Shown piece by piece: positions 15 to 14,417 of a stretch of DNA of 14,417 nucleotides. The notes under the pieces are model-generated. The model was not told the origin of the DNA and did not search any database. It was given only the letters and a program-made list of their open reading frames with translations. Each line of letters opens with the position of its first letter. The first letter of the stretch is position 1. This stretch comes from a virus. The stretch lies in UHGV virus genome UHGV-0099904; one strand, given 5' to 3'. A program made the translations under genes and the position numbers.

Positions 15-3000
15 ATGAACCTGTTAATCACCTCAGTGGATGGTGATAAAACCGCTGGCGCGGCGTCAGTGAATATTGGTGAATTCTACCAGGTAACTAT
101 TCAGCAGCGTAAGGATATTTCTCTTGCACTTAGCGCAGGTAAGAAATATGCAATTGTGCTGAAGGGAAGATACCTCCTTGGAGAAGATTCTTATCAGGTT
201 AATACCGCGTCACATATTCATGCGGCTGAATTTGTTGCCAGAACCTATACCGATTCATATCAGTTAGGAGATGGGGAACTGCTTGTTTGTACGGTGAATA
301 TCCCTGCTGGCGTATCTGCTATTACTAAGGAAATGATAGATGTATCCGACCGCATCGATCTCGCGATAGGCATTGAAATTTCCGACTCTGTAACCAGTAC
401 CAGAAGTGATGTCGCTGCAAGTTCGCTGGCGGTTAAAAAAGCCTACGATCTGGCTAAAAGCAAGTATACGGCGCAGGATGCAAGCACAACACAAAAGGGA
501 TTAGTTCAGCTCAGTAGCGCAACTAACAGCGACAGCGAAACAATGGCGGCTACCCCTAAAGCCGTTAAGTCTGTAAAAGAGCTGGCTGATACCAAAGCGC
601 CAATAGAAAGCCCGAGTCTGACAGGAACGCCAACCGCGCCGACGGCAGCGCAAGGTACAAACAGCACGCAGATCGCAAATACAGCCTTTGTTAAGGCAGC
701 TATAACGGCACTTATCAACGGTGCACCTGGCACACTGGATACGCTTAAAGAAATAGCGGCTGCGATCAATAACGACCCGAATTTCAGCACAACTATCAAC
801 AATGCTCTGGCTCTTAAAGCTCCTTTAGCAAGTCCTGCATTAACGGGAATACCTACTGCGCCTACCGCTGTACAGGGTACGAATAACACGCAGATTGCTA
901 CGACCGCTTATGTAAGAGCTGCTATCTCTGCATTGGTCGGCTCATCACCTGAAGCTCTTGATACCCTGAATGAGCTTGCAGCAGCACTGGGCAATGACCC
1001 GAACTTTGCGACAACAATGACAAATGCGCTGGCAGGCAAACAGCCACTTGATGCAACTTTAACCGCGCTTGCTGGTCTTGCGACAGGCGCAAATAAATTG
1101 CCGTACTTTACCGGTACAGACACTGTTTCTCAGACTGACTTAACGTCAGTCGGTCGCGATATTCTGGCCAAAACAAGCGTTCTTGCTGTTATCCAATACC
1201 TTGGTTTAAGAGAACTCGGTACCAGTGGTGAAAAGATCCCCCTGTTGAGCACGGCTAACACATGGAGTGCGCGCCAGACTTTCAACGGAGGGATCACCGG
1301 GGCGCTGACAGGGAACGCCGACACCGCGACGAAATTGAAAACAGCACGCACGATTGGCGGTGTGGCATTTGATGGCTCGGGCAATATCAATCTTCCAGGT
1401 GTAAATATAACAGGTAACCAGAACACCACGGGGAATGCTGCTACCGCGACAAAACTTGCGACGGTAAGAAACATCAACGGTGTTAAGTTTGATGGTTCTG
1501 CGGACATTTCGATACCAACAATTACGTCCAGAGGGCGTGTTACTGCGCTCACCGGTACAACACAAGGTGCTGCTACTGGATTGCAGATGTATGAGGCGTA
1601 CAACAATAGCTACCCGACCACGTATGGCAACGTATTGCACATGAAAGGTGCGAGTGCTGCTGGTGAGGGCGAGTTGCTTATTGGCTGGAGTAGTACGAGC
1701 GGTGCACATGCGCCGGTTTTCATTCGCTCCCGAAGAGATCACACTGATGCGGCATGGTCAGCGTGGGCGCAGGTATATACATCAAGGGACTCCATTCCTG
1801 GTGTGAATGCCACTGGCAATCAGAATACAACTGGCAATGCAGCAACCGCTACAAAACTACAGACGGCAAGAACTATCGGCGGAGTTAGCTTTGATGGTAC
1901 TGCGAATATTAATTTACCTGGTGTTAACGTTGCGGGTAATCAGAATACATCCGGTAACGCGGCTACAGCGACCAAGTTACAAACCGCGAGAACTATAAAT
2001 GGGGTGTCGTTTGACGGTTCTAAAAACATTGAGCTAACTCCAAGGTCTATAGGCACGATCAACTCTACAACCATGTCTTTTATTGGTGGTGCAGGATGGT
2101 TCAAGCTGGCAACTGTAACCATGCCACAGGCCAGTTCCGTGGTTTACATAAGTCTGATTGGTAGTTCTGGATATAATGTTAACTCCCCTATGCAGGCTGG
2201 TATATCTGAACTTGTTCTTCGTGCGGGAAATGGGAATCCAAAAGGTCTTACTGGTGCGTTATGGCGACGGACATCGGTTGGATTTACTAATTTTGCATGG
2301 GTGAATACATCCGGTGATACCTATGATGTTTATGTTGAAATAGGTAATTACGCCACTGGTGTAAATATCCAGTGGGATTATACCAGTAACGCCAGCGTAA
2401 CGATTCATACATCACCAAATTACACAGTAGATAAACCAACTGGTCTTACTGATGGAACGGTATATGTCATTTACAGTTCGCACATTAAACCGACCGCCAC
2501 GGATGTCGGCGCATTACCAATAACCGGAGGAAATCTCAACGGCGGTTTAACGGCTACTGGTGAGATCGTTTCAAGATATGCAAATGGTTTCCGCATTGCC
2601 TATGGAAGCTACGGATTCTTTATCCGAAACGATGGTTCAAACACATATTTCATGTTGACCAATTCGGGTAACAGCCTGGGAACCTATAATAATTTAAGGC
2701 CGCTTATCATTAACAATGCCAATGGTACTGTTACGATCGGTAATGGGCTCAATGTTACTGGCGGCATCAATGGTAGTTTGAACGGCAATGCTTCAACGGC
2801 TACGAAGTTGCAAACTGCTAGAAAAATAAGCGGCGTGTCTTTTGATGGTTCTGCTGATATAACACTAACAGCTGAAAATGTATCTGCTTTTGCTCTACGC
2901 GCTACTGGAACTTATGCCGATACTAGTGGTGCGGTCCCGTGGAATGCCGAATCAGGTGCGTATAATGTTACACGCTCCGGGGATTCTTATATCGTTGCAA

Positions 3001-4034
3001 ATTTTTATACAGGCGTAGGTAGTTGTCGGACTCTCCAAATCCGAGCGCACCATAAAAATGGTGGATTGTATTACCGTTCATCACGTGATGGCTATGGGTT
3101 CGAAGAGGGCTGGGCTCAGATATATACTAAAAAAGACAGCATCCCTGGTGTGAATACAACTGGTAATCAGAACACTACTGGCAATGCTGCAACTGCAACA
3201 AAACTGCAAACAGCACGCACAATAGGCGGAGTGTCATTCGATGGTAGTGCCAATATCGACCTGCCGGGCGTGAATAAAGCAGGTAATCAGAGCACTACCG
3301 GTAATGCCGCAACCGCAACGAAACTACAGACTGCACGCACTATCAACGGTGTTCAGTTTGATGGTTCTGCAAATATTACTTTAACTGCTGCTAACCTTGG
3401 CCTGAGCGATTCAAGCGGATATGTTGGGCGTTTGGTGAATACCCGGGTTTTCACTTCATCAGGTACGTATACCCCAACCCCAGGAACAAAACGGATCAGG
3501 GTCACAATAACGGGCGGCGGTGGCGGAGGGGGCGGCTGCAAGGCTATATCCAATAATGAAACGTTTTTCGGTGCTGGCGGCGGGGCAGGTGGGACAGTAA
3601 TCACCACGCTGATCCTGACGAAGGATAGTTATCCTGTCACTATCGGCGCAGGTGGGGCCGGCGGCGTTAGTGCGACGACCGGCCTCAAGGGCGGTGATAG
3701 CTCGTTCGGATCGGTAATAGCCCCTGGTGGTGAAGGTGGCGGGAAAGTGGGAGTTACAAACACAAACGGCGGTAACGGCGGTGTGCCAAGTACTGGCGGT
3801 ATCAACATCATTGGTGGACATGGAGGCGACGGTCAGTCCGGAAATATCGGCGTCAGCGGTGAAGGCGGAACATCGTACTGGGGGGGCGGTGGACGCGCAG
3901 GCGCTGGCGGTGGTGTTAGTGGTAAGGCATATGGTTCAGGTGGCGGTGGCGCATACGATGCCGGTTATAGCGGAACCAGTATGACGGGCGGGAAAGGTGC
4001 TGCTGGGATTTGTATTATCGAGGAGTTTGCATAA
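15..4034 (+). CDS. Phage tail fiber protein, 1339 aa; the frame has no upstream stop before the window edge, so the true N-terminus may lie upstream
   Basis: Single 4 kb ORF. Translation shows hallmark tail fiber motifs: KGLVQLSSATNSDSETMAATPKAVK near aa 160-185, PTAPTA..GTN.TQIA.TA(F/Y)V shaft repeats, repeated GNQNTTGNAATATKLQTARTIGGVSFDGSANI units, and a Gly-rich C-terminus. A tail fiber assembly gene follows with a TAATG stop/start overlap. Confidence 0.9.
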   Translation: MNLLITSVDGDKTAGAASVNIGEFYQVTIQQRKDISLALSAGKKYAIVLKGRYLLGEDSYQVNTASHIHAAEFVARTYTDSYQLGDGELLVCTVNIPAGVSAITKEMIDVSDRIDLAIGIEISDSVTSTRSDVAASSLAVKKAYDLAKSKYTAQDASTTQKGLVQLSSATNSDSETMAATPKAVKSVKELADTKAPIESPSLTGTPTAPTAAQGTNSTQIANTAFVKAAITALINGAPGTLDTLKEIAAAINNDPNFSTTINNALALKAPLASPALTGIPTAPTAVQGTNNTQIATTAYVRAAISALVGSSPEALDTLNELAAALGNDPNFATTMTNALAGKQPLDATLTALAGLATGANKLPYFTGTDTVSQTDLTSVGRDILAKTSVLAVIQYLGLRELGTSGEKIPLLSTANTWSARQTFNGGITGALTGNADTATKLKTARTIGGVAFDGSGNINLPGVNITGNQNTTGNAATATKLATVRNINGVKFDGSADISIPTITSRGRVTALTGTTQGAATGLQMYEAYNNSYPTTYGNVLHMKGASAAGEGELLIGWSSTSGAHAPVFIRSRRDHTDAAWSAWAQVYTSRDSIPGVNATGNQNTTGNAATATKLQTARTIGGVSFDGTANINLPGVNVAGNQNTSGNAATATKLQTARTINGVSFDGSKNIELTPRSIGTINSTTMSFIGGAGWFKLATVTMPQASSVVYISLIGSSGYNVNSPMQAGISELVLRAGNGNPKGLTGALWRRTSVGFTNFAWVNTSGDTYDVYVEIGNYATGVNIQWDYTSNASVTIHTSPNYTVDKPTGLTDGTVYVIYSSHIKPTATDVGALPITGGNLNGGLTATGEIVSRYANGFRIAYGSYGFFIRNDGSNTYFMLTNSGNSLGTYNNLRPLIINNANGTVTIGNGLNVTGGINGSLNGNASTATKLQTARKISGVSFDGSADITLTAENVSAFALRATGTYADTSGAVPWNAESGAYNVTRSGDSYIVANFYTGVGSCRTLQIRAHHKNGGLYYRSSRDGYGFEEGWAQIYTKKDSIPGVNTTGNQNTTGNAATATKLQTARTIGGVSFDGSANIDLPGVNKAGNQSTTGNAATATKLQTARTINGVQFDGSANITLTAANLGLSDSSGYVGRLVNTRVFTSSGTYTPTPGTKRIRVTITGGGGGGGGCKAISNNETFFGAGGGAGGTVITTLILTKDSYPVTIGAGGAGGVSATTGLKGGDSSFGSVIAPGGEGGGKVGVTNTNGGNGGVPSTGGINIIGGHGGDGQSGNIGVSGEGGTSYWGGGGRAGAGGGVSGKAYGSGGGGAYDAGYSGTSMTGGKGAAGICIIEEFA
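597..1040 (+). repeat. Tandem duplication of a ~74-aa shaft module inside the tail fiber gene (aa 195-268 and 269-342)
   Basis: APIESPSLTGTPTAPTAAQGTNSTQIANTAFVKAAITALINGAPGTLDTLKEIAAAINNDPNFSTTINNALALK versus APLASPALTGIPTAPTAVQGTNNTQIATTAYVRAAISALVGSSPEALDTLNELAAALGNDPNFATTMTNALAGK. The protein copies are clearly related while the DNA differs at many codon third positions. Confidence 0.8.
1299..1514 (+). repeat. First pair of ~40-aa TATKL fiber repeats (aa 429-500)
   Basis: TGNADTATKLKTARTIGGVAFDGSGNINLPGVN followed by ITGNQNTTGNAATATKLATVRNINGVKFDGSADISIP. Confidence 0.8.
1791..2036 (+). repeat. Second pair of TATKL fiber repeats (aa 593-674)
   Basis: IPGVNATGNQNTTGNAATATKLQTARTIGGVSFDGTANINLPGVNVAGNQNTSGNAATATKLQTARTINGVSFDGSKNIEL. 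Confidence 0.8.
3141..3383 (+). repeat. Third pair of TATKL fiber repeats (aa 1043-1123); a single copy also lies at about 2769-2867
   Basis: IPGVNTTGNQNTTGNAATATKLQTARTIGGVSFDGSANIDLPGVNKAGNQSTTGNAATATKLQTARTINGVQFDGSANITL. Near-identical in protein to the 1791-2036 copy, with many synonymous DNA differences. Confidence 0.8.
3492..4031 (+). repeat. Glycine-rich C-terminal tip domain of the tail fiber (aa ~1160-1339); GGN-rich low-complexity DNA
   Basis: Runs GGGGGGGG, GAGGGAGG, GAGGAGG, PGGEGGG, GGNGG, GGHGGDG, GEGG, GGGGRAGAGGG and GSGGGG alternate with short non-Gly segments. Includes a G7 homopolymer at 3880-3886. Confidence 0.75.
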
Positions 4035-4444
4035 TGAATGCGTCATATGCAGTTATTGAAAATGGGATGGTTGTGAATGTCATTGTCTGGGATGGCGAGG
4101 CTGAATTCACAGTGCCGGATAATCAGCAGCTCATTAATATTTCTGATATCAGTGAGCAGCCCGGAATCGGCTGGGTGTATTCAGACGGGGGATTTACTGC
4201 ACCACCCACTCCGGAACGTTCTCATGATGAACTGGTAGCTGACGCTGAACAGAAAAAACAGTCGCTGATTGATACCGCAATGGCTTCCATTAGTCTTATT
4301 CAACTGAAATTACAGGCCGGGCGGAATCTTACGCAGGCTGAAACCACCCGTCTTAACGCTGTGCTGGATTATATCGATGCGGTGACCGCAATGGATACCA
4401 GCACTGCACCAGATGTCAATTGGCCAGCGTTCCCGGAGGCGTAG
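4034..4444 (+). CDS. tfa: Tail fiber assembly protein (lambda Tfa / P1 U-like chaperone)
   Basis: C-terminal DTSTAPDVNWPAFPEA closely matches the lambda Tfa C-terminus as I recall it (DTSTAPDIEWPAVP). AGGAG at 4021-4025 sits 8 nt before the ATG at 4034, which overlaps the fiber TAA. The ORF-track start at 4010 is a TTG and is less likely. Confidence 0.9.
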   Translation: MNASYAVIENGMVVNVIVWDGEAEFTVPDNQQLINISDISEQPGIGWVYSDGGFTAPPTPERSHDELVADAEQKKQSLIDTAMASISLIQLKLQAGRNLTQAETTRLNAVLDYIDAVTAMDTSTAPDVNWPAFPEA

Positions 4445-4879: not shown

Positions 4880-5161
4880 ATGTGTGATTTCACAATAATG
4901 CTCCTCTCCATCCTTGGCGGGGTGCATTCGTTTCTGAATGGGGTTCGTGAAAAACGTTACGAAGCGTCATGCAGGCAATTGATGGCCGAGTGTATTGCTG
5001 CCGTACTTGCAGGCTTTATAGGCATGTATTTCGCGGAATATAAGGGTATGGATGAAAGTCTTCAGAATTGCGTGACTATTATTTGCAGCATCAATAACAG
5101 GCTCATTCTTGAAAAGTTACAAAGGATTATCGATTCGTACCTCAATAGAAATGCCTCTTAA
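4880..5161 (+). CDS. Small two-TM membrane protein, holin-like; paralog of the downstream LydA-like gene
   Basis: AAGGA at about 4868-4872 sits 8 nt before the ATG. Hydrophobic segments at aa 5-20 and 33-51. Aligns with the 5229-5558 product (LLSILGGVHSFLNGVRE versus LLSVIGGIGTFLMDVRD, with shared AV.AG, I.S.N and S.LN positions). Confidence 0.55.
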   Translation: MCDFTIMLLSILGGVHSFLNGVREKRYEASCRQLMAECIAAVLAGFIGMYFAEYKGMDESLQNCVTIICSINNRLILEKLQRIIDSYLNRNAS

Positions 5162-5228: not shown

Positions 5229-5558
5229 GTGCTTGACACACAGGAATTAGCTCCAGTTGCTATTGCGCTCCTGCTTTCAGTAATTGGTGGGATAGGCACG
5301 TTCCTGATGGATGTCCGAGACGGTCGCCAGTCTGGCAATTTGTTGGGATTGGTTACGGAGATCTTTGTTGCAGTGACAGCTGGCGCGGTGGCGTACCTAT
5401 TGGGGCAACACGAGGGCTGGGAGTTATCAATTACGTACTTAATGGTAACGATAGCCAGCAATAACGGTCATGAGGTGATTTCAGGGATGAAACGAGTGAA
5501 TATCGATAGCATTCTGAATGTTCTTACAAGTTTGGTGAAAAAGGGAGGCGGGAAATGA
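5229..5558 (+). CDS. lydA: Holin (P1 LydA-like), 109 aa, GTG start
   Basis: Two to three hydrophobic helices (APVAIALLLSVIGGIGTFLM, LLGLVTEIFVAVTAGAVAYLLG) and a charged C-terminal tail (KKGGGK). It sits immediately upstream of the dar-like block, as lydA does in P1. Its stop overlaps the next start (ATGA). Confidence 0.55.
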   Translation: MLDTQELAPVAIALLLSVIGGIGTFLMDVRDGRQSGNLLGLVTEIFVAVTAGAVAYLLGQHEGWELSITYLMVTIASNNGHEVISGMKRVNIDSILNVLTSLVKKGGGK

Positions 5559-8882: not shown

Positions 8883-11870
8883 ATGAGCTTAAGCGATCAG
8901 GTGGTGATGGCCACCAGCATAGAAACGCTGATCGAGCTGCTAAAAAACCTGCCCGATTACGGGCGGGTTTCGTATGTGGTGACAGCGAAGGGAGACGAGG
9001 TAAAAACAGCGTTTGATATCGTCGATGCCTCAGCTCTTTTGGTATCCAATACTCTGGACGGGAAAATTAATCCAGACTATCCCCAGGAACTTCAGCCGCG
9101 CGACCGGACCCGCGCATCCAGCCTTCTTCAGGTCAACCAGATATCCAAGGATTTGCGTCCTGCCCAGCTTACCGATTCCGGTTTATCCAGCCATGGCGCG
9201 CCAATAATTGGTGAGGACAATGCCGTTGAGTCAGGTAATGGGCGGACCATGGGGATCATCAAAGCCTATCAGGACGGTAATGCGGATCGGTATCGGGAGT
9301 ACCTGATTGAACATGCGACCGAATTCGGCATACGGCCTGAAAAGGTTGAATCAATGACGGCTCCGGTACTGGTGCGCCGCCGGTTAACGAAGGTTGACCG
9401 TGTTCAGTTTGCCAAGGACTCAAATATTTCTGATCTCCAGGAAATGGCAGCCAGTGAAAAGGCTTTTGTTGATGCCGACAGCATAACACCGGCGATGATG
9501 GCGTTGTTTAACCCGTCAGAAAGCGGAGATCTGCTTAGCCGCAGTAATGACGCGTTTATTCGCGGATTCATGACGCAAGTTGGTGCCACACAGGCTGCTG
9601 GCCTTGTAACGGAAGATGGGCGACCAACACGGCAACTTGTAGACCGTATACAAAACGCGATCTTTGCCAAGGCATATAAGGATGCGCGCCTGGTAAGGAT
9701 GGTTGCAGAAGAACCTGATCCGGATATGCGTAATGTTCTGACGGCGCTTAATGCGGCAGCCAATGATTTTGTCCAGATGCAGGCTTTATCAGGAGAAGCG
9801 CACAAGCAGGCTGTGACAACTATTGTTGATGGCATTGAGACAGCGGATAGCCTCGATAAAAAGGCGCTGGCGGCATTGAAAGATGCGGTAGACCTGGTAA
9901 GGCAATCGAAGGAGTCAGGCCAGCATATTACCGATGTTATTGCTCAGGGGGATATGTTCAGCGAAACGGCCCCGGAAGTGAAAGCACTCGCGTTGTTCAT
10001 CGTCGCGAATAACCGTAGCGCGAAGCGTATGGCCACCGCCTTTAAGTTGATGGCTCAACGTATCAATGATGAGTTACAGCACCAGGGCCAGGCGCTGGGG
10101 GATATGTTTGGCGGCGGCGATGTGTCGTTACAGGATATCCTTCGCCAGGTGTCTCAGGAACTGGAATACGAAGGCATGCAAGGGATATCCGGCGGTCTTT
10201 TCGAGTCCGTTTCCGGCGGTAGTTACAACGGTGTTGCTCCGTATACCAGTTTGCTATTACATCGGGCATCCGGCATCAAAGACATTATTCATCTGATCAG
10301 GCTGCTTTCCCGCACAGATCACCAGGATGAACAGCTTGTACAAGTGCTTGCGCATTTTGTTCGAATGCCTGTTGCCGAAGTGAAAAAATGGTGCCGATTA
10401 TTCGGTATCAGCAATTCGTTACTTCGCGGCTTGTTAAATCACGCATCCTCCCTTGGGCGCGATGGCTTTGACGAGATAGCGCAGGCGATAAAAAACGGAG
10501 ATATGCCACCAGCTATTGACTGGTTTTCCATTCGCCCAACCAGGGTGAAAGCATTCCTTAGCGCGGCGCATTCGGCATCACCATTGGCAGAAATGGTTCA
10601 GAGGTTGTCGCTCATATTCACAGACCATACCGCGTTGGGTGATCTGACTCTGGACGAGATGAAAGAAGCCTCCATTCAGTGGGCCGATCAACAAAATGAG
10701 GTTAACTCAGACTTCTTGCCAGCATTCAGGAAGGCCGTTAGTAAAGCGGATGATGCCCGTGGAATTCTGAAGGCATTTAAGGCATTGCAAAGTCGGGTTA
10801 ATAAACATGTCGGTGATATCGATGGGGTAACGGCGGAAGGCAGGGATATCCTTAAAGAGCACGGCATAACGCCAGAGTTTATTGATGAGATCAGGACGGA
10901 TATGCAGCGTGAGGTCGTATCGTCCCTGCAAATTGTAGCCAGAGCGTTGGCGGATGCTAATCCGAAGAGTGCGGCCATTGTTAACCGGGTTATTGGTGAT
11001 ATTGAAGCATCGGAGGGCATGGGGGCGCTGAAACTCTTCCTTTCGCGAGCGTTTAATCCTAACGGCAATATTCTCCCTGGCATTATTGGTGAGGCTAAAA
11101 AGTATGTCAGTGAAGAAGAACTTGAGCAGCTTGACCAACTACTTAAGCGATTCTCATATAACCCGCAGACACGCTGGCAAATGAATCAGCGAGGTATGGG
11201 TTCGGTCCACGAGAAAGTGTTATCTGCCATGAACAGTGCGATCGCAAACTCATCCGTATCTGAAGAAAAAGCTCTTGAGTGGGCCGACTCTTTTATCACG
11301 GAAGAAGTGGAAGAAGCCCGCGCTGGACAGAATGGTGGGATAGACCTGCGCAAGGAACTTGCTGATATTTATCGCCTGACCGGCGGGAAAATATCGACCT
11401 TATCAAAGGTGGTTCACCACCAGGGAAGGGCATATGCAAATCTTAATGGTGTTGTTGCTGTCAATTTGAACGATGAAAATGCAAGTGCACTGTGGCACGA
11501 GCTGGGTCATCATCTTGAGTACAGTAACCCTGGTTTGTTAGAGAAAGCCCGGTCATTCCTGAAGGCCAATGTTGAAGGGGATAAGCCATCTTTCGTTAAT
11601 ATCGGTGGGCGTGGCAAGCCTGAATGGTGCTTCAGATCTCGATTGAGTAATATTTATATGGCGAAGGTATACCCGCCAGCCTCAGTAAGTAACACCGGGA
11701 AAATTCGGCAGAAATCCCCGACTATTTCCAAAACGTCAGCAACGGAAGTATTCTCTATGGCTCTTCAGTTGTATCATGACAAAGAGGCCGCTGCCGCATC
11801 ACTGATGAATGGTGACGGATTGCTGGAACTGTTATTAGGTGTGGCAAAGGAGCTAAATAATGCAGATTAA
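8883..11870 (+). CDS. ddrB: DdrB-like large virion protein, 995 aa, with a zincin HExxH motif and a possible ParB-like N-terminal domain
   Basis: Uninterrupted 3 kb ORF. HELGH at nt 11496-11510 (WHELGHHLE, aa 872-876). N-terminal segment VESGNGRTMGIIKAY resembles the ParB/Srx G-x-x-R signature. Operon position and length fit P1 DdrB as I recall it. Confidence 0.65.
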   Translation: MSLSDQVVMATSIETLIELLKNLPDYGRVSYVVTAKGDEVKTAFDIVDASALLVSNTLDGKINPDYPQELQPRDRTRASSLLQVNQISKDLRPAQLTDSGLSSHGAPIIGEDNAVESGNGRTMGIIKAYQDGNADRYREYLIEHATEFGIRPEKVESMTAPVLVRRRLTKVDRVQFAKDSNISDLQEMAASEKAFVDADSITPAMMALFNPSESGDLLSRSNDAFIRGFMTQVGATQAAGLVTEDGRPTRQLVDRIQNAIFAKAYKDARLVRMVAEEPDPDMRNVLTALNAAANDFVQMQALSGEAHKQAVTTIVDGIETADSLDKKALAALKDAVDLVRQSKESGQHITDVIAQGDMFSETAPEVKALALFIVANNRSAKRMATAFKLMAQRINDELQHQGQALGDMFGGGDVSLQDILRQVSQELEYEGMQGISGGLFESVSGGSYNGVAPYTSLLLHRASGIKDIIHLIRLLSRTDHQDEQLVQVLAHFVRMPVAEVKKWCRLFGISNSLLRGLLNHASSLGRDGFDEIAQAIKNGDMPPAIDWFSIRPTRVKAFLSAAHSASPLAEMVQRLSLIFTDHTALGDLTLDEMKEASIQWADQQNEVNSDFLPAFRKAVSKADDARGILKAFKALQSRVNKHVGDIDGVTAEGRDILKEHGITPEFIDEIRTDMQREVVSSLQIVARALADANPKSAAIVNRVIGDIEASEGMGALKLFLSRAFNPNGNILPGIIGEAKKYVSEEELEQLDQLLKRFSYNPQTRWQMNQRGMGSVHEKVLSAMNSAIANSSVSEEKALEWADSFITEEVEEARAGQNGGIDLRKELADIYRLTGGKISTLSKVVHHQGRAYANLNGVVAVNLNDENASALWHELGHHLEYSNPGLLEKARSFLKANVEGDKPSFVNIGGRGKPEWCFRSRLSNIYMAKVYPPASVSNTGKIRQKSPTISKTSATEVFSMALQLYHDKEAAAASLMNGDGLLELLLGVAKELNNAD

Positions 11871-12177
11871 AATCGCAGCGCCATTAGGCGGAGATGCCAT
11901 TATCGAATTTGATGATAATGAAGAAGTTTCCGGGCGTTTAAGCATTATCTCCGGTGACATTACCGAGGACATGATCGCTGAAGCCATAGCTGGGGCAAAT
12001 CCCAATAGCTATATGGGATTCGTTAACACCCTTGATGCTCTCGCAAGTGATGTTCTCCGAACGCTGCATCTTTACGCTGGCTGGTTTGTTGATTGGCCAG
12101 CAGTAGAGGGTGGCGATGAGGACGACGACGATGACGACGATGATTTTGGGGATCATGTAGACCAGATCGTATATTGA
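11860..12177 (+). CDS. Small, strongly acidic protein, 105 aa, ending in an Asp8 run; candidate DNA-mimic or virion protein
   Basis: Strong AAGGAG RBS 8 nt upstream of the ATG; the start overlaps the ddrB-like stop by 11 nt. About 28 D/E versus about 3 K/R residues. A terminator hairpin follows. Confidence 0.6.
   Translation: MQIKIAAPLGGDAIIEFDDNEEVSGRLSIISGDITEDMIAEAIAGANPNSYMGFVNTLDALASDVLRTLHLYAGWFVDWPAVEGGDEDDDDDDDDFGDHVDQIVY
12121..12144 (+). repeat. (GAY)8 trinucleotide repeat encoding Asp8, inside the acidic run DEDDDDDDDD (12115-12144)
   Basis: gac gac gac gat gac gac gat gat read directly in frame. Confidence 0.9.
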
Positions 12178-12179
12178 AG

Positions 12180-12205
12180 AAATCCCGCCAATCGGCGGGA
12201 TTTTT
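12180..12205. terminator. Hairpin between convergent operons, candidate bidirectional terminator
   Basis: AAATCCCGCC-aatc-GGCGGGATTT (10-bp stem, 4-nt loop) with a 5-T run, three of them inside the stem. It sits 3 nt after the + strand stop and 6 nt after the minus-strand stop. The minus-strand reading has only a weak T-rich tail (TTCTTC). Confidence 0.65.
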
Positions 12206-12208
12206 ACC

Positions 12209-13303
12209 TCACGAGAAGCTTTTTTCTGATGTCAGCCAACAGTGCTCGTGCAAATCTCTTGGTGGTTTTTCGACAAATGCCTCTTCAGCCACATCCTGCC
12301 AGGGGATTTGTTTAGCCCATTCAGCTATAGCGTTATGGTTTGCCGAGAATAACGGTATTGTATAGGCCTTCAGCCAGTCTAATGTGCTGGAGTTGTGTTT
12401 TTGAGCGTGATGTTTCGCATGGTGTTTGGCGATCACGATCGTAGGCACTACCCATTTACTACCGTCAGTCATTGTGAAGTGCATATTACGGGGAACAGAT
12501 GACTTTTCCATCAACTCCCGAATCCCGGGAAATTTCCCCAAGATCAATCGGCGATATTCATCGCTATTGCGCCCACCAAACTCTTTGGCTTTGAATTCAA
12601 GATATGCTTCAGAAACGAGAGGTGAATCCTCTGTGTTTAGAGTTAGCGCCGTGAAAAAACCAGCAGGATTGTTTTTACTATGGGCCAACCGGTGATGCGA
12701 ATCATAAAAGTACCCTTTCTCGCGTTCCGATGGTTTCGACAGCAACAGCAGGCGCGAGTCATAATTGGTTAAATTGCCAGTTATCACTGCATGAGCGCGA
12801 TCGCTGATTTCCGCCGAGTTAATAACGATGAAAAGATCGTGCGGTCCAGTAAAACCAGCCAGAGACTCTTCGTTATTCAGACAATAGGTTATATAGACGC
12901 ATCCCCATGTTTCACTGATATGCACCAACCCTTTGTCAGGGTGTATTCTGAAATAATTGCCAAGAAAAGGGTGTTTTTGGGTAACTCGCTCCCAATAACG
13001 GAACATATAGTCAATTATTGTTTTTCGACTATCGTTAATCGCAGGAGAAACAACCACTGTACGGGAACACGAATACAGTATTGTTTGCAGGATGCTAATC
13101 ACTGCCACAATAGAGGTTTCCCCAATACCATGTGGTGTGGTGGCAGTGACTTTGGCTCCGGTGTTCTTTATCGCGTTAATAATTTTTGCTTGATGAGGTG
13201 TTAACTCAATATCAAGCAACTCTTTTGCTGCCAGTTCCCAATTGTCTTTATACCGTTCTATCAGTGCTAACCAGGCAGATTCATTCTGTATACGATTAAT
13301 CAC
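12209..13303 (-). CDS. Terminase-large-subunit-like ATPase-fold protein with degenerate Walker A and B motifs, 364 aa
   Basis: LTPHQAKIINAIKNTGAKVTATTPHGIGETSIVAVISIL...RTVVVSPAINDSRKTI...DLFIVINSAEIS parallels the T4 gp17-type N-terminal ATPase (YQ..., RQLGKTTVVA..., IYIDECAF) as I recall it, but with GETS in place of GKT and NSAE in place of DE. Overlaps the upstream gene by 8 nt. Confidence 0.55.
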   Translation of the reverse strand: MINRIQNESAWLALIERYKDNWELAAKELLDIELTPHQAKIINAIKNTGAKVTATTPHGIGETSIVAVISILQTILYSCSRTVVVSPAINDSRKTIIDYMFRYWERVTQKHPFLGNYFRIHPDKGLVHISETWGCVYITYCLNNEESLAGFTGPHDLFIVINSAEISDRAHAVITGNLTNYDSRLLLLSKPSEREKGYFYDSHHRLAHSKNNPAGFFTALTLNTEDSPLVSEAYLEFKAKEFGGRNSDEYRRLILGKFPGIRELMEKSSVPRNMHFTMTDGSKWVVPTIVIAKHHAKHHAQKHNSSTLDWLKAYTIPLFSANHNAIAEWAKQIPWQDVAEEAFVEKPPRDLHEHCWLTSEKSFS

Positions 13304-14090
13304 TTTCCACCTCTTCCGTGGTGTTTTCTTGCAGTTCTGTTAATGCAGCACGACATAGGTTCCGGGCATTGGCTATAGCCACACTTTTGACTTCATCCGT
13401 CATCGTGCAGGTAATGTACTGATCGAGTTCTTCAGCGCGGATGATGCTTTTGCCAATCAGAAACTGTATTTGCCAGAGCAGATCGGCATCCATAATCAGA
13501 ATTTCTGCCGGGCCTTCAGGACCAGCCGGGAAGGAAACATAAGACTGTTTGCCCAGGCCGATAACTCGACAACTTGCTTCAAGAATTGCGCGATTGAGGT
13601 CTGACTTTGTAACTGAAACAGGTTGATTTTCACCTGCGATTACGCCGTTGACATGGATGTGGAATGGCATGTAGCTTGAAATTCGCTCTACTTTCCATAC
13701 GCCAGCAAGCGATCCTTCATGCAGCACAATGGGGGTAACCGCGAGTTTCATCTCACCATATAACTGCTGGCAGATAGCTGGATTGCTGAATACATCCAAA
13801 GGTTCACACTCAAACAGCGGCGCAATCTGTATGAGGTCCATCATGGTCATACCAGGGGTACGAGCAGTAATGAATCTGCGCATGCCAGTATCCATTGTGC
13901 GCCAGATAGCTACACCATGCTTTTTGCTCACTTCTTCAGTAAAGCCAAGGTGGCACATGATGGTTTTTTCGATAGCCAGATCAGAGATAGAAACCTTTTC
14001 GCCAGGTACACCATCATTATTGATGGTCACTTCTACACTCTGGCCATTACGCAGGCGGTATTGAATGGTTTTAGTATTTTGTGCTGTCAT
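13296..14090 (-). CDS. Hypothetical protein, 264 aa, co-transcribed with the terminase-like gene
   Basis: Long ORF with a plausible weak RBS (GAGAAAAGA) before the ATG. Ends inside the start of the next gene. I see no recognisable motifs. Confidence 0.55.
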   Translation of the reverse strand: MTAQNTKTIQYRLRNGQSVEVTINNDGVPGEKVSISDLAIEKTIMCHLGFTEEVSKKHGVAIWRTMDTGMRRFITARTPGMTMMDLIQIAPLFECEPLDVFSNPAICQQLYGEMKLAVTPIVLHEGSLAGVWKVERISSYMPFHIHVNGVIAGENQPVSVTKSDLNRAILEASCRVIGLGKQSYVSFPAGPEGPAEILIMDADLLWQIQFLIGKSIIRAEELDQYITCTMTDEVKSVAIANARNLCRAALTELQENTTEEVESD

Positions 14091-14104
14091 AGTCTTTTCT
14101 CTGC

Positions 14105-14287
14105 TTAAAAACTGATGTATTGCGCCTTCAGGTTGGTTAGGAATGTTTTCCCACCAGCGAAAGCAATATCTCGGGGTGTTCTATTCGTTAAAAGCGCGTG
14201 CCATTGCCAACTTTGGCGTTTGTTTGCGAGTTCGTGCTTTTGTCGGCGTCTTGACCACCGCTTTTCTTTCAGTCGTTTTTTACTCAT
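14105..14287 (-). CDS. Possible small basic protein, 60 aa
   Basis: The ATG lies 5 nt after the ssb stop with no clear SD. K/R-rich N-terminus (SKKRLKEKRWSRRRQKHELANKRQ). Fills the gap between ssb and the next gene. Confidence 0.3.
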   Translation of the reverse strand: MSKKRLKEKRWSRRRQKHELANKRQSWQWHALLTNRTPRDIAFAGGKTFLTNLKAQYISF

Positions 14288-14292
14288 AAACT

Positions 14293-14417
14293 CTAAAACG
14301 GAATATCGTCGTCAAAGTCCATTGGAGGTTCGTTATTGGCGTTGCTCTGAGGTTTACCGCCACCACTGTATTGCTGGTGGTTTTGAGGTTGGTTTGATTG
14401 CCCCCAGCCATTTGAGG
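14293..14417 (-). CDS. ssb: Single-stranded DNA-binding protein, C-terminal fragment (gene continues beyond the right edge)
   Basis: Minus-strand translation ends ...[40 protein letters not shown], the conserved Gly/Gln-rich tail and acidic DDDIPF tip of bacterial and phage SSB. Confidence 0.85.

Follow-up and report, generated by a model that had tools for sequence, protein, structure and literature searches.

A terminase ATPase fold without its catalytic residues, encoded next to isaA in P1-like phage-plasmids

The viral genome UHGV-0099904 was analysed as a single stretch of 14,417 nucleotides, hereafter called the window. Judging from its database matches, the window derives from a P1-like phage-plasmid: its bases 12100-14417 matched three phage records (vB_EcoM-813R1, 'Punavirus P1' MH422554 and MH445380) at 97-98% over 99% of the query, and at least 80% of the same query was held by about 119 plasmids of E. 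coli, Salmonella and other enterobacteria. The subject of this report is a pair of overlapping genes located near the end of the window, between ssb and hxr. The downstream gene encodes a 364-aa protein which, on its sequence and modelled fold, is a paralogue of the large terminase of this phage group, PacB, and is catalytically dead; we will call it the pseudo-terminase. The upstream gene is, by similarity and position, the named P1 gene isaA.

Gene arrangement between ssb and hxr

The pair had been described in an earlier note, made from the DNA letters alone, as two open reading frames (ORFs) of 364 and 264 aa with an 8-nt overlap, downstream of ssb and in a convergent arrangement. This description held: both ORFs were found on the minus strand at the coordinates listed below, ssb ends at 14293 on the same strand, and hxr, on the plus strand, converges on the pair at a hairpin. 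The features of the region are as follows.

12209..13303, minus strand: pseudo-terminase gene, 364 aa, GTG start, stop at 12209-12211; predicted PacB paralogue, matched by PHROG 5902 and phrog_2
13296..14090, minus strand: isaA, 264 aa, ATG start; matched by P1 isaA and PHROG 2326
13296..13303, minus strand: stop/start overlap of the two genes, GTGATTAA, 8 nt, with a GAGGTGG ribosome-binding site just upstream
14091..14292, minus strand: ssb-isaA spacer of about 200 nt, with no promoter-like or terminator-like site predicted on this strand
14293..14417, minus strand: 3' end of ssb (…DDDIPF, then stop), which ends at 14293; first gene of the inferred transcription unit
12178..12205, both strands: bidirectional hairpin terminator between hxr and the pseudo-terminase gene, predicted from sequence and folding
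11860..12177, plus strand: hxr, end of the convergent darA (anti-restriction) operon

The 8-nt overlap holds both the start codon of the pseudo-terminase gene (GTG, 13301-13303) and the stop codon of isaA (TAA, 13296-13298). The hairpin at 12178-12205 folds with -19.3 and -20.7 kcal/mol on the two strands (z = -5.2 and -4.5), and none of 200 shuffled sequences folded as well; it had been missed by a scan for consensus terminators and was confirmed by folding.

On the minus strand between ssb and isaA, the scan found neither a sigma-70-like promoter nor a terminator-like site, and no C1 operator was found within the window. The promoter and operator of ssb lie outside the window, and C1 control was inferred from relatives: in MH422554, a 97%-identical phage, the P1 operator sequence ATTGCTCTAATTAATTT is located 20 nt upstream of ssb, and the records of P1 and P7 annotate a C1-controlled ssb operator there. 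The ssb gene of P1 is reportedly repressed in lysogens. Because of the operator at ssb in relatives and the lack of a detected promoter or terminator between ssb and isaA, the unit formed by ssb, isaA and the pseudo-terminase gene is probably C1-repressed and early: it would stay off in lysogens and come on soon after infection or induction, ahead of the late pacA-pacB operon.

P1 DNA matches the window at about 96% identity over isaA and the end of ssb; the 264-aa product is matched by phrog_2326 (E 4e-150), and the P1 annotation has isaA at the same position downstream of ssb. The earlier note had called this partner an uncharacterised protein, which is accurate in that no function has been assigned to it, but it is not nameless, being IsaA of P1. 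Searches of IsaA against protein families and the PDB gave no match and no recognisable effector domain, and an AlphaFold2 model built from a shallow alignment reached a pLDDT of 51. In a CRISPRi screen, isaA was dispensable for lytic growth of P1 (PMC10695390). In the P1 RefSeq record (NC_005856), IsaA is annotated as a 320-aa protein starting 30 nt after ssb; the stretch concerned is 21569-21740 of that record and 14091-14292 of the window. This annotation is probably wrong, because the extra N-terminus is broken by an in-frame TAG in both the window and MH422554, and because D6-type homologues start at the ATG of the 264-aa form. A 60-aa ORF at 14105-14287 is probably non-coding.

What follows isaA differs between the window and reference P1. 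In the latter, an IS1 element lies about 95 nt downstream of isaA and is followed by isaB. Since IS1 and the unrelated isaB occupy the position after isaA, reference P1 lacks the 364-aa gene, and the possibility that the latter would turn out to be simply a known P1 gene with a defined function does not apply. The idea that IS1 had split a single gene in P1 was rejected, P1 isaB being unrelated to the pseudo-terminase.

The pairing of the two genes is not confined to one lineage. Seventeen IMG/VR loci contain a pseudo-terminase 48-53% identical to the window protein. In 16 of them the gene is immediately preceded, in the same orientation, by one for an IsaA of 44-48% identity (46-49% for the pair), while the contig of the seventeenth ends right before the pseudo-terminase gene. 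The stop and start codons of the pair overlap again in those D6-type loci whose frames were checked, so that at about 50% divergence both the start position of the pseudo-terminase and its coupling to isaA are kept. In one group of loci (L009 type) the pair occupies a different genomic position, where a cre-like recombinase gene, two small genes, dut, a DUF2829 gene, isaA and the pseudo-terminase gene converge on doc-phd; matching plasmids and phage D6 itself identify these loci as D6-like phage-plasmids. Conversely, IsaA occurs without a pseudo-terminase in P1, D6, SJ46 and one further contig (L003). In the plasmid collection, a full-length pseudo-terminase was present in about 162 records (120 of the P1 type and about 42 of the D6 type) and isaA in 470. 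By these counts the pseudo-terminase is an accessory gene, added to roughly one in three elements with isaA. Upstream of more distant dead paralogues lie other genes: one for a Ref-type RecA-dependent nuclease (overlapping by 4 nt), one for a radical-SAM protein, or small ORFs. The radical-SAM protein, found beside paralogue P0145, gave only sub-threshold generic matches (MoaA, viperin, HxsC).

A comparison of isaA and its partner in two closely related elements (L005 and L008, 9200-11100) showed isaA to be near-identical (dS 0.04, omega 0.04), while the adjacent pseudo-terminase gene had a dS of 0.19 and an omega of 0.5. This contrast indicates a recombination breakpoint between the two genes, together with faster protein evolution of the pseudo-terminase.

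The terminase-like fold and its motifs

The closest characterised relative of the 364-aa protein, in tblastn searches against phage genomes, was PacB: the PacB proteins of P1, P7 and D6 aligned with it at 34-35% identity over residues 11-285 or 2-259 (E 1e-43 to 1e-46). Among PHROG families, phrog_2 ('terminase large subunit') matched with E 7e-9, and phrog_5902 matched along its full length (positions 1-359 of 359, E 1e-185). When the protein and its nearest relatives were combined into a profile, more than 1000 large terminases of about 470 aa each were recovered. Pfam itself gave no match: terminase families (Terminase_6, Terminase_3 and others) were not detected in the 364-aa protein by hmmscan at E up to 1, and few of its live relatives carry PF03237. 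NCBIfam and PADLOC likewise had no match to the product, and sequence and profile searches of the PDB returned nothing meaningful.

The modelled structure agrees with the alignments. An AlphaFold2 model reached a pLDDT above 90 for residues 10-260, with the C-terminal domain poorly predicted. The best Foldseek matches in the PDB were the terminase ATPase domains of Sf6, HK97, P74-26, D6E and T4, with a probability of 1.0, and the top matches in BFVD were terminases only; it should be kept in mind here that the alignment from which the model was built consisted mostly of true terminases. The N-terminal terminase-type ATPase read by eye in the earlier note is thus borne out by the PacB alignments, phrog_2, the profile search and the modelled fold. 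The protein keeps the PacB-type N-terminal segment (DPRW..L...Y..DW..AA..LFG), the Q motif, and the motifs GYFYDSHH, EDSPLV and YGGR…LGEFP. Its domains and altered motifs are positioned as follows.

12518..13303, minus strand: ATPase-fold domain, aa 1-262, ending at the LGKFP hinge; predicted from the model, Foldseek and the PacB alignment
13115..13138, minus strand: degenerate Walker A, aa 56-63, TPHGIGET against SGHGTGKS in PacB; Lys62 replaced by Glu, Gly57 by Pro
12815..12835, minus strand: degenerate Walker B, aa 157-163, LFIVINS against LYIIDEA in PacB; Asp161 replaced by Ile, catalytic Glu162 by Asn
12212..12511, minus strand: C-terminal domain, aa 265-364 (about 95-100 aa), PHROG 17928-type, in place of the nuclease domain

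To compare the catalytic motifs, the 364-aa protein was aligned with PacB and some 106 full-length live terminases. The Walker A lysine, invariant in the 106 live enzymes, is absent from all nine members of the clade of dead paralogues described below. The Walker B Asp (92% of live terminases) and Glu (100%) are likewise kept in none of the nine, the segment reading VINSAE in the 364-aa protein and IIDEAS in live terminases. Losses extend to Ser56/Gly57, the TAP…Q motif, the NPT coupling motif (C-motif), Arg253 and the conserved His of LxGxH (His152), the last being present in 99% of live enzymes; Asn190 and Thr192 of the coupling motif and His152 are each kept in 0 of 9 clade members. Finally, the alignment with PacB and other terminases stops near residue 262, at the LGKFP hinge, and the whole RNase-H-like nuclease domain is missing. 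The replacement of both Walker motifs (GIGETS and VINSAE), on which the earlier note had based its view of a probably dead enzyme, was thus confirmed, and that view is strengthened by the further loss of the coupling motif, His152 and the nuclease domain.

As a consequence, the 364-aa protein should not be annotated as 'terminase large subunit', the label given to this gene in MH422554 and in some metagenomic records. While it retains the homology and the fold, five of seven features of a functional terminase are absent: Walker A, Walker B, the coupling motif, the nuclease domain and a position in the packaging module, the gene being located between isaA and hxr, away from pacA.

The domain that takes the place of the nuclease is marked by the motif MPDGSxWxVP..VIA..HA..YA…PLF…DWA.NNMNW.DV and had no match in Pfam or PDB searches. 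It recurs in other arrangements. In a Klebsiella dead paralogue (P0316) it precedes the dead ATPase domain (aa 1-105). It stands alone in P0241 and in gp35 of Cronobacter phage JK004, a P1-like phage in which it follows a DnaB-type helicase gene, and it forms the C-terminus of a DUF1351 protein (ORF36) of Xanthomonas phage CP2, beside Erf, an exonuclease and SSB. The domain was located at 4001-4297 of L031 and about 3950-4309 of L032. Most dead paralogues are devoid of it. By these arrangements the domain is a separate, mobile evolutionary unit, and its occurrences point towards early DNA-metabolism modules.

Dead paralogues and the genomic neighbourhood

PacB-like proteins were searched for exhaustively among 1.84 billion representative proteins. 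About fifteen clusters (at 50% identity) with degenerate Walker motifs were present among the best matches. Their proteins are mostly 250-270 aa long, i.e. the ATPase domain alone; three of the clusters share the C-terminal domain of about 100 aa with the window protein, and one has a different C-terminal extension. Many of the clusters are found on contigs of 80-100 kb, and their named members come from E. coli, Citrobacter, Klebsiella and Leclercia, which fits P1/D6-type phage-plasmids in both size and hosts. The 90%-identity cluster of the 364-aa protein itself holds 851 sequences.

Nine dead paralogues including the window protein, each from its own 50%-identity cluster, group into a single clade within the PacB-type terminases in trees constructed by neighbour joining only (bootstrap 200/200, or 195/200 once the Walker A and B columns were removed). 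Reading frames within the clade are intact down to 32% mutual identity, and the pairwise dN/dS of the pseudo-terminase gene, calculated from few pairs, ranged from 0.11 to 0.52. By these measures the gene is under purifying selection and the 364-aa protein is a member of an old, maintained family rather than debris. Constraint has shifted along the protein: the catalytic segments are 58-70% identical among true PacBs and 29-35% identical between the dead clade and PacBs, while the N-terminal 35 residues, GYFYDSHH and the lid region are conserved in the dead clade on a par with real PacBs. At the position of the Walker A lysine, the nine members have E, R, H, R, M, T, I, C and T. As this position is not conserved in the clade, no alternative active site is evident. 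All dead-clade members that were sampled in their genomic context come from P1/D6-like phage-plasmids in which genuine pacA-pacB genes are present as well. The window stops short of the pac region, and the genuine terminase genes that the earlier note had proposed to look for were thus found in relatives carrying the module.

Some further observations concern PacB-like proteins beyond the nine-member clade. P0180 is Walker-dead and branches separately among live terminases, representing at least one further dead derivative of independent origin, and P0183, P0207 and P0283 are Walker-dead terminase ATPase-domain proteins that were left out of the tree. Cluster members of P0180, P0183/P0207 and P0283 include proteins of Leclercia, Citrobacter and Acinetobacter. 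Their position outside the clade suggests that terminase ATPase domains have been inactivated repeatedly. Single-protein scans of viral contigs with paralogues P0145 and P0144 gave no match. Several PacB-like terminases (P0170, P0176, P0189, P0206, P0213, P0229, P0248 and others) are 650-860 aa long owing to large insertions at or around the Walker A loop, which are apparently inteins.

The locus between ssb and hxr coincides with a published variable region of P1-like plasmids, termed RD-2 (PMC6906374) or region 2 (PMC9603915), in line with the variability among P1 relatives that the earlier note had ascribed to it. In phage P7, the same hotspot between ssb and hxr/odaA carries the outer-membrane porin gene nmpC, a moron, in place of isaA and the pseudo-terminase gene (L034, 3655-4770). 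Other elements have an additional gene of the DUF2829 family, which in SJ46 and certain IncY P1-like plasmids is flanked directly by ssb and isaA, and in D6-like elements adjoins isaA on its upstream side. DUF2829 is the Tad2 family of anti-Thoeris sponges (10.1101/2023.05.01.538930), and anti-defence genes have been reported to cluster. On a metagenomic contig of about 93 kb (L036; cluster relatives from Citrobacter freundii), a distant dead paralogue of 30% identity is immediately preceded by a distant Tad2-like gene of 27% identity, and further upstream there is an orphan DNA methyltransferase gene; the unit converges on a doc/phd-type pair. Tad2-like genes (DUF2829 / PF11195) thus precede isaA plus the pseudo-terminase gene, or a distant dead paralogue, in three diverged phage-plasmid lineages (L033, 3480-4157; L035, 3391-4236; L022, 8798-9238; L036, 4276-4884). 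There is no Tad2-like gene in the window, where the dar anti-restriction operon is the convergent neighbour. PADLOC-DB 2.0 had no match for the 364-aa protein, IsaA, Hxr or four paralogues. Taken together, the neighbourhood points to counter-defence rather than defence, as far as gene context can tell.

The plus strand of the window encodes, in order, a tail-fibre protein, a tail-fibre assembly protein, two LydA-type holins, lydB, hdf, darA, ddrA, ddrB and hxr. The genes hdf-darA-ddrA-ddrB constitute the anti-restriction operon, of which hxr is the last gene; DarA_N, LydB and other domains were recognised in the genes upstream of hxr. The Hxr protein ends in an acidic run with nine consecutive aspartates (GGDEDDDDDDDDFGDH, window positions about 12115-12150). 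The two holin genes are neighbouring paralogues (4880-5161 and 5229-5558) located 5' of lydB. The tail-fibre protein (15-4034) has 1339 aa, with Phage_fiber_2 repeats, a Gp34-type trimerisation domain and a glycine-rich C-terminal domain, and its gene is followed by the assembly gene at 4010-4444.

Possible roles and known systems

Because catalysis has been lost but the fold kept, the pseudo-terminase would work by binding. We consider it likely that the protein is a binding-only mimic with some role in phage-host or phage-phage conflict. Assigning it specifically to counter-defence is a more tentative step, possible but by no means assured. It is nevertheless the preferred one among the roles considered, on the strength of the Tad2-like neighbour that recurs across deep divergence, the placement in an early unit under C1 control, the adjacent Dar genes, the location in a hotspot and the fast-evolving alleles. 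An isolated terminase ATPase domain suffices to activate the immune sensors EcAvs2 and Upx, and EcAvs2 contacts the ATP bound by the terminase (PMC13601566).

A model of such a role can be outlined. According to it, the pseudo-terminase would be a stoichiometric mimic of the PacB ATPase domain. Its translation would be coupled to that of isaA, and its gene would share a transcript with ssb, driven by the ssb promoter under C1 repression. The mimic would occupy host immune sensors of terminase ATPase domains (of the Avs1-3 or Upx type), or shield against them, and the loss of its ATP site would let it bind these sensors without triggering them. The Tad2-like gene, isaA and the pseudo-terminase gene would together form an early anti-defence cassette. 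In its most detailed version, an early excess of the mimic would jam Avs1-3 or Upx before the late terminase appears, the lost ATP/Mg site would block the licence for sensor oligomerisation, and IsaA and the Tad2-like protein would co-operate; that all these details apply seems doubtful.

Several points weigh against counter-defence. The link of the Tad2-like and dar genes to the pseudo-terminase is one of position only, and any binding partner of the mimic is at this stage speculative. Avs2 and Avs3 make use of features that disappeared with the ATP/Mg site, so that the sensors might not bind the protein at all. PADLOC, Pfam and NCBIfam, as mentioned, do not match the protein. Other dead paralogues adjoin the Ref-type nuclease, the radical-SAM protein or small ORFs, and the C-terminal domain is found elsewhere in replication and recombination modules. 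C1 control is read from relatives, the promoter lying beyond the window. Finally, all members found are relatives of PacB-type terminases, an observation that a role specific to PacAB would explain equally well or better; this last point weighs little, as the search was seeded with the PacB-type family.

The main rival to counter-defence is packaging control, which we regard as rather unlikely, if still ahead of the remaining alternatives. Here the dead N-terminal domain of PacB would bind PacA (the pac-recognition subunit), the portal or PacB protomers, and so act as a modulator or poison subunit. It would either time or limit the pac cleavage and packaging of its own element, or be dominant negative against competing P1/P7/D6-type elements. 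The nesting of the dead clade among PacB-type terminases and the co-residence of genuine pacA-pacB with all members seen in context both suit this role. So does the PacB-type N-terminal segment, kept as strongly as in real PacBs, since it is the N-terminal region that binds the small subunit in other terminases (lambda gpA-gpNu1); total loss of catalysis in a preserved fold is, moreover, the classic design of a dominant-negative subunit. However, the gene lies outside the late packaging operon, in an early C1-controlled accessory unit, which also argues against an exclusion exerted from the lysogen. Identity between its product and present-day PacBs, co-resident ones included, is no higher than about 35%, giving no sign of specific target matching; the gene is present in only about one third of relatives, and inhibiting one's own essential terminase would be costly. 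An accessory role in replication or recombination appears less probable still. In that case, the dead fold would provide a scaffold for binding DNA or protein and, together with IsaA and the C-terminal domain, act early alongside SSB. Such a role would explain the placement of the gene in the ssb operon, the company of the C-terminal domain (a DnaB-type helicase in JK004; Erf, exonuclease and SSB around the DUF1351 protein of CP2), the paralogue overlapping a gene for a Ref-type RecA-dependent nuclease, and the dut, hot and umuC-like neighbours in other elements. All of this is association by position only, though, most paralogues are without the C-terminal domain, and isaA is dispensable for lytic growth of P1. 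To our knowledge, there is no precedent for a nucleotide-free terminase fold in replication or recombination.

The two genes might also be an anti-phage defence system of the prophage, in which the pseudo-terminase would sense packaging proteins of an invader and IsaA would be the effector. The variable hotspot in which they lie is also home to morons (nmpC of P7, for example), the two-gene module is conserved and translationally coupled, and terminase-derived domains, as the earlier note remarked, occur in defence and satellite systems. We nevertheless hold prophage defence to be improbable: neither protein nor the paralogues matched PADLOC, IsaA has no recognisable effector domain and occurs alone in P1, D6 and SJ46, distant paralogues have no adjacent IsaA, and the inferred C1 repression would leave the system silent in lysogens. 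Two other explanations can be given very little credence. A decaying remnant of a captured or duplicated terminase gene, no longer functional, might be expected to have lost its catalytic residues and nuclease domain, and the gene is indeed absent from reference P1 and many relatives. Decay is, however, effectively refuted by the intact frames at 32% identity, the monophyly in 200 of 200 replicates, dN/dS well below 1, and the start position and isaA coupling kept at 50% divergence; in addition, the 90%-identity cluster comprises 851 sequences, and a conserved extra domain has been gained, also in swapped order. An NTPase with a non-canonical active site would account for the Gln of the Q motif (Q38) and the P-loop glycines G59 and G61, all kept in 9 of 9 clade members. 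Yet the position of the Walker A Lys is unconserved within the clade, and the Walker B Asp/Glu, the coupling motif and His152 are each kept in none of the nine; a cryptic active ATPase was rejected because these catalytic positions were lost with no consistent replacement.

Either of the two foremost roles would matter beyond this locus. Large terminases are the most conserved phage enzymes and a principal target of bacterial pattern-recognition immunity (Avs1-3, Upx), and their folds can evidently be recycled as non-enzymatic binding modules. Should the pseudo-terminase prove to be an immune decoy, it would represent a new class of counter-defence and the first anti-defence protein derived from the sensed target itself, and it would explain how phage-plasmids tolerate the expression of a terminase-like protein. 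Should it control packaging instead, it would be a built-in regulator, or a weapon among competing P1-type phage-plasmids that spread resistance genes in Enterobacteriaceae. In both cases, the long-unexplained isaA region of P1 relatives gains a testable function, and automatic 'terminase large subunit' annotations are corrected.

As for known systems, PHROG 5902 groups the family of dead paralogues under the label 'unknown function', and we found no description of this family in the literature; for P1-like elements, nothing relevant emerged on inactive paralogues or decoys of terminases, or on interference with packaging. PacB of P1, P7 and D6 is homologous over the whole N-terminal ATPase domain and belongs to the same phage-plasmid group. 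It is, however, essential, encoded next to pacA and equipped with a nuclease domain, whereas the pseudo-terminase is accessory, encoded in the early ssb unit and provided with an unrelated domain of about 100 aa instead. The gene order at isaA differs in a similar way, the IsaA of P1 (annotated with 320 aa) being followed by IS1 and isaB and the 264-aa IsaA of the window by the pseudo-terminase. Tad2 (DUF2829) is a genomic neighbour of the module and belongs to a different protein family; its Tad2-like versions in P1/D6 elements have 146-281 aa against the 89 aa of Tad2, and their activity is putative. For packaging control, a possible analogy is offered by Ppi of staphylococcal pathogenicity islands (SaPI) and Rpp of phage-inducible chromosomal islands (PICI), small accessory packaging-interference proteins that bind terminase components without catalysis. 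They differ in being unrelated in sequence and fold and in targeting the small terminase of a helper phage, while the pseudo-terminase is terminase-derived and carried by a phage, not by a satellite.

The nearest analogue of the pseudo-terminase, as far as an analogy drawn from descriptions can go, would be vs.8 of T4 (PMC13601566). Both represent a second phage copy of the terminase ATPase domain, without the nuclease domain and encoded outside the packaging genes. T4 vs.8 keeps Walker A and Walker B and activates EcAvs2 when co-expressed with it, whereas the 364-aa protein has lost both motifs.

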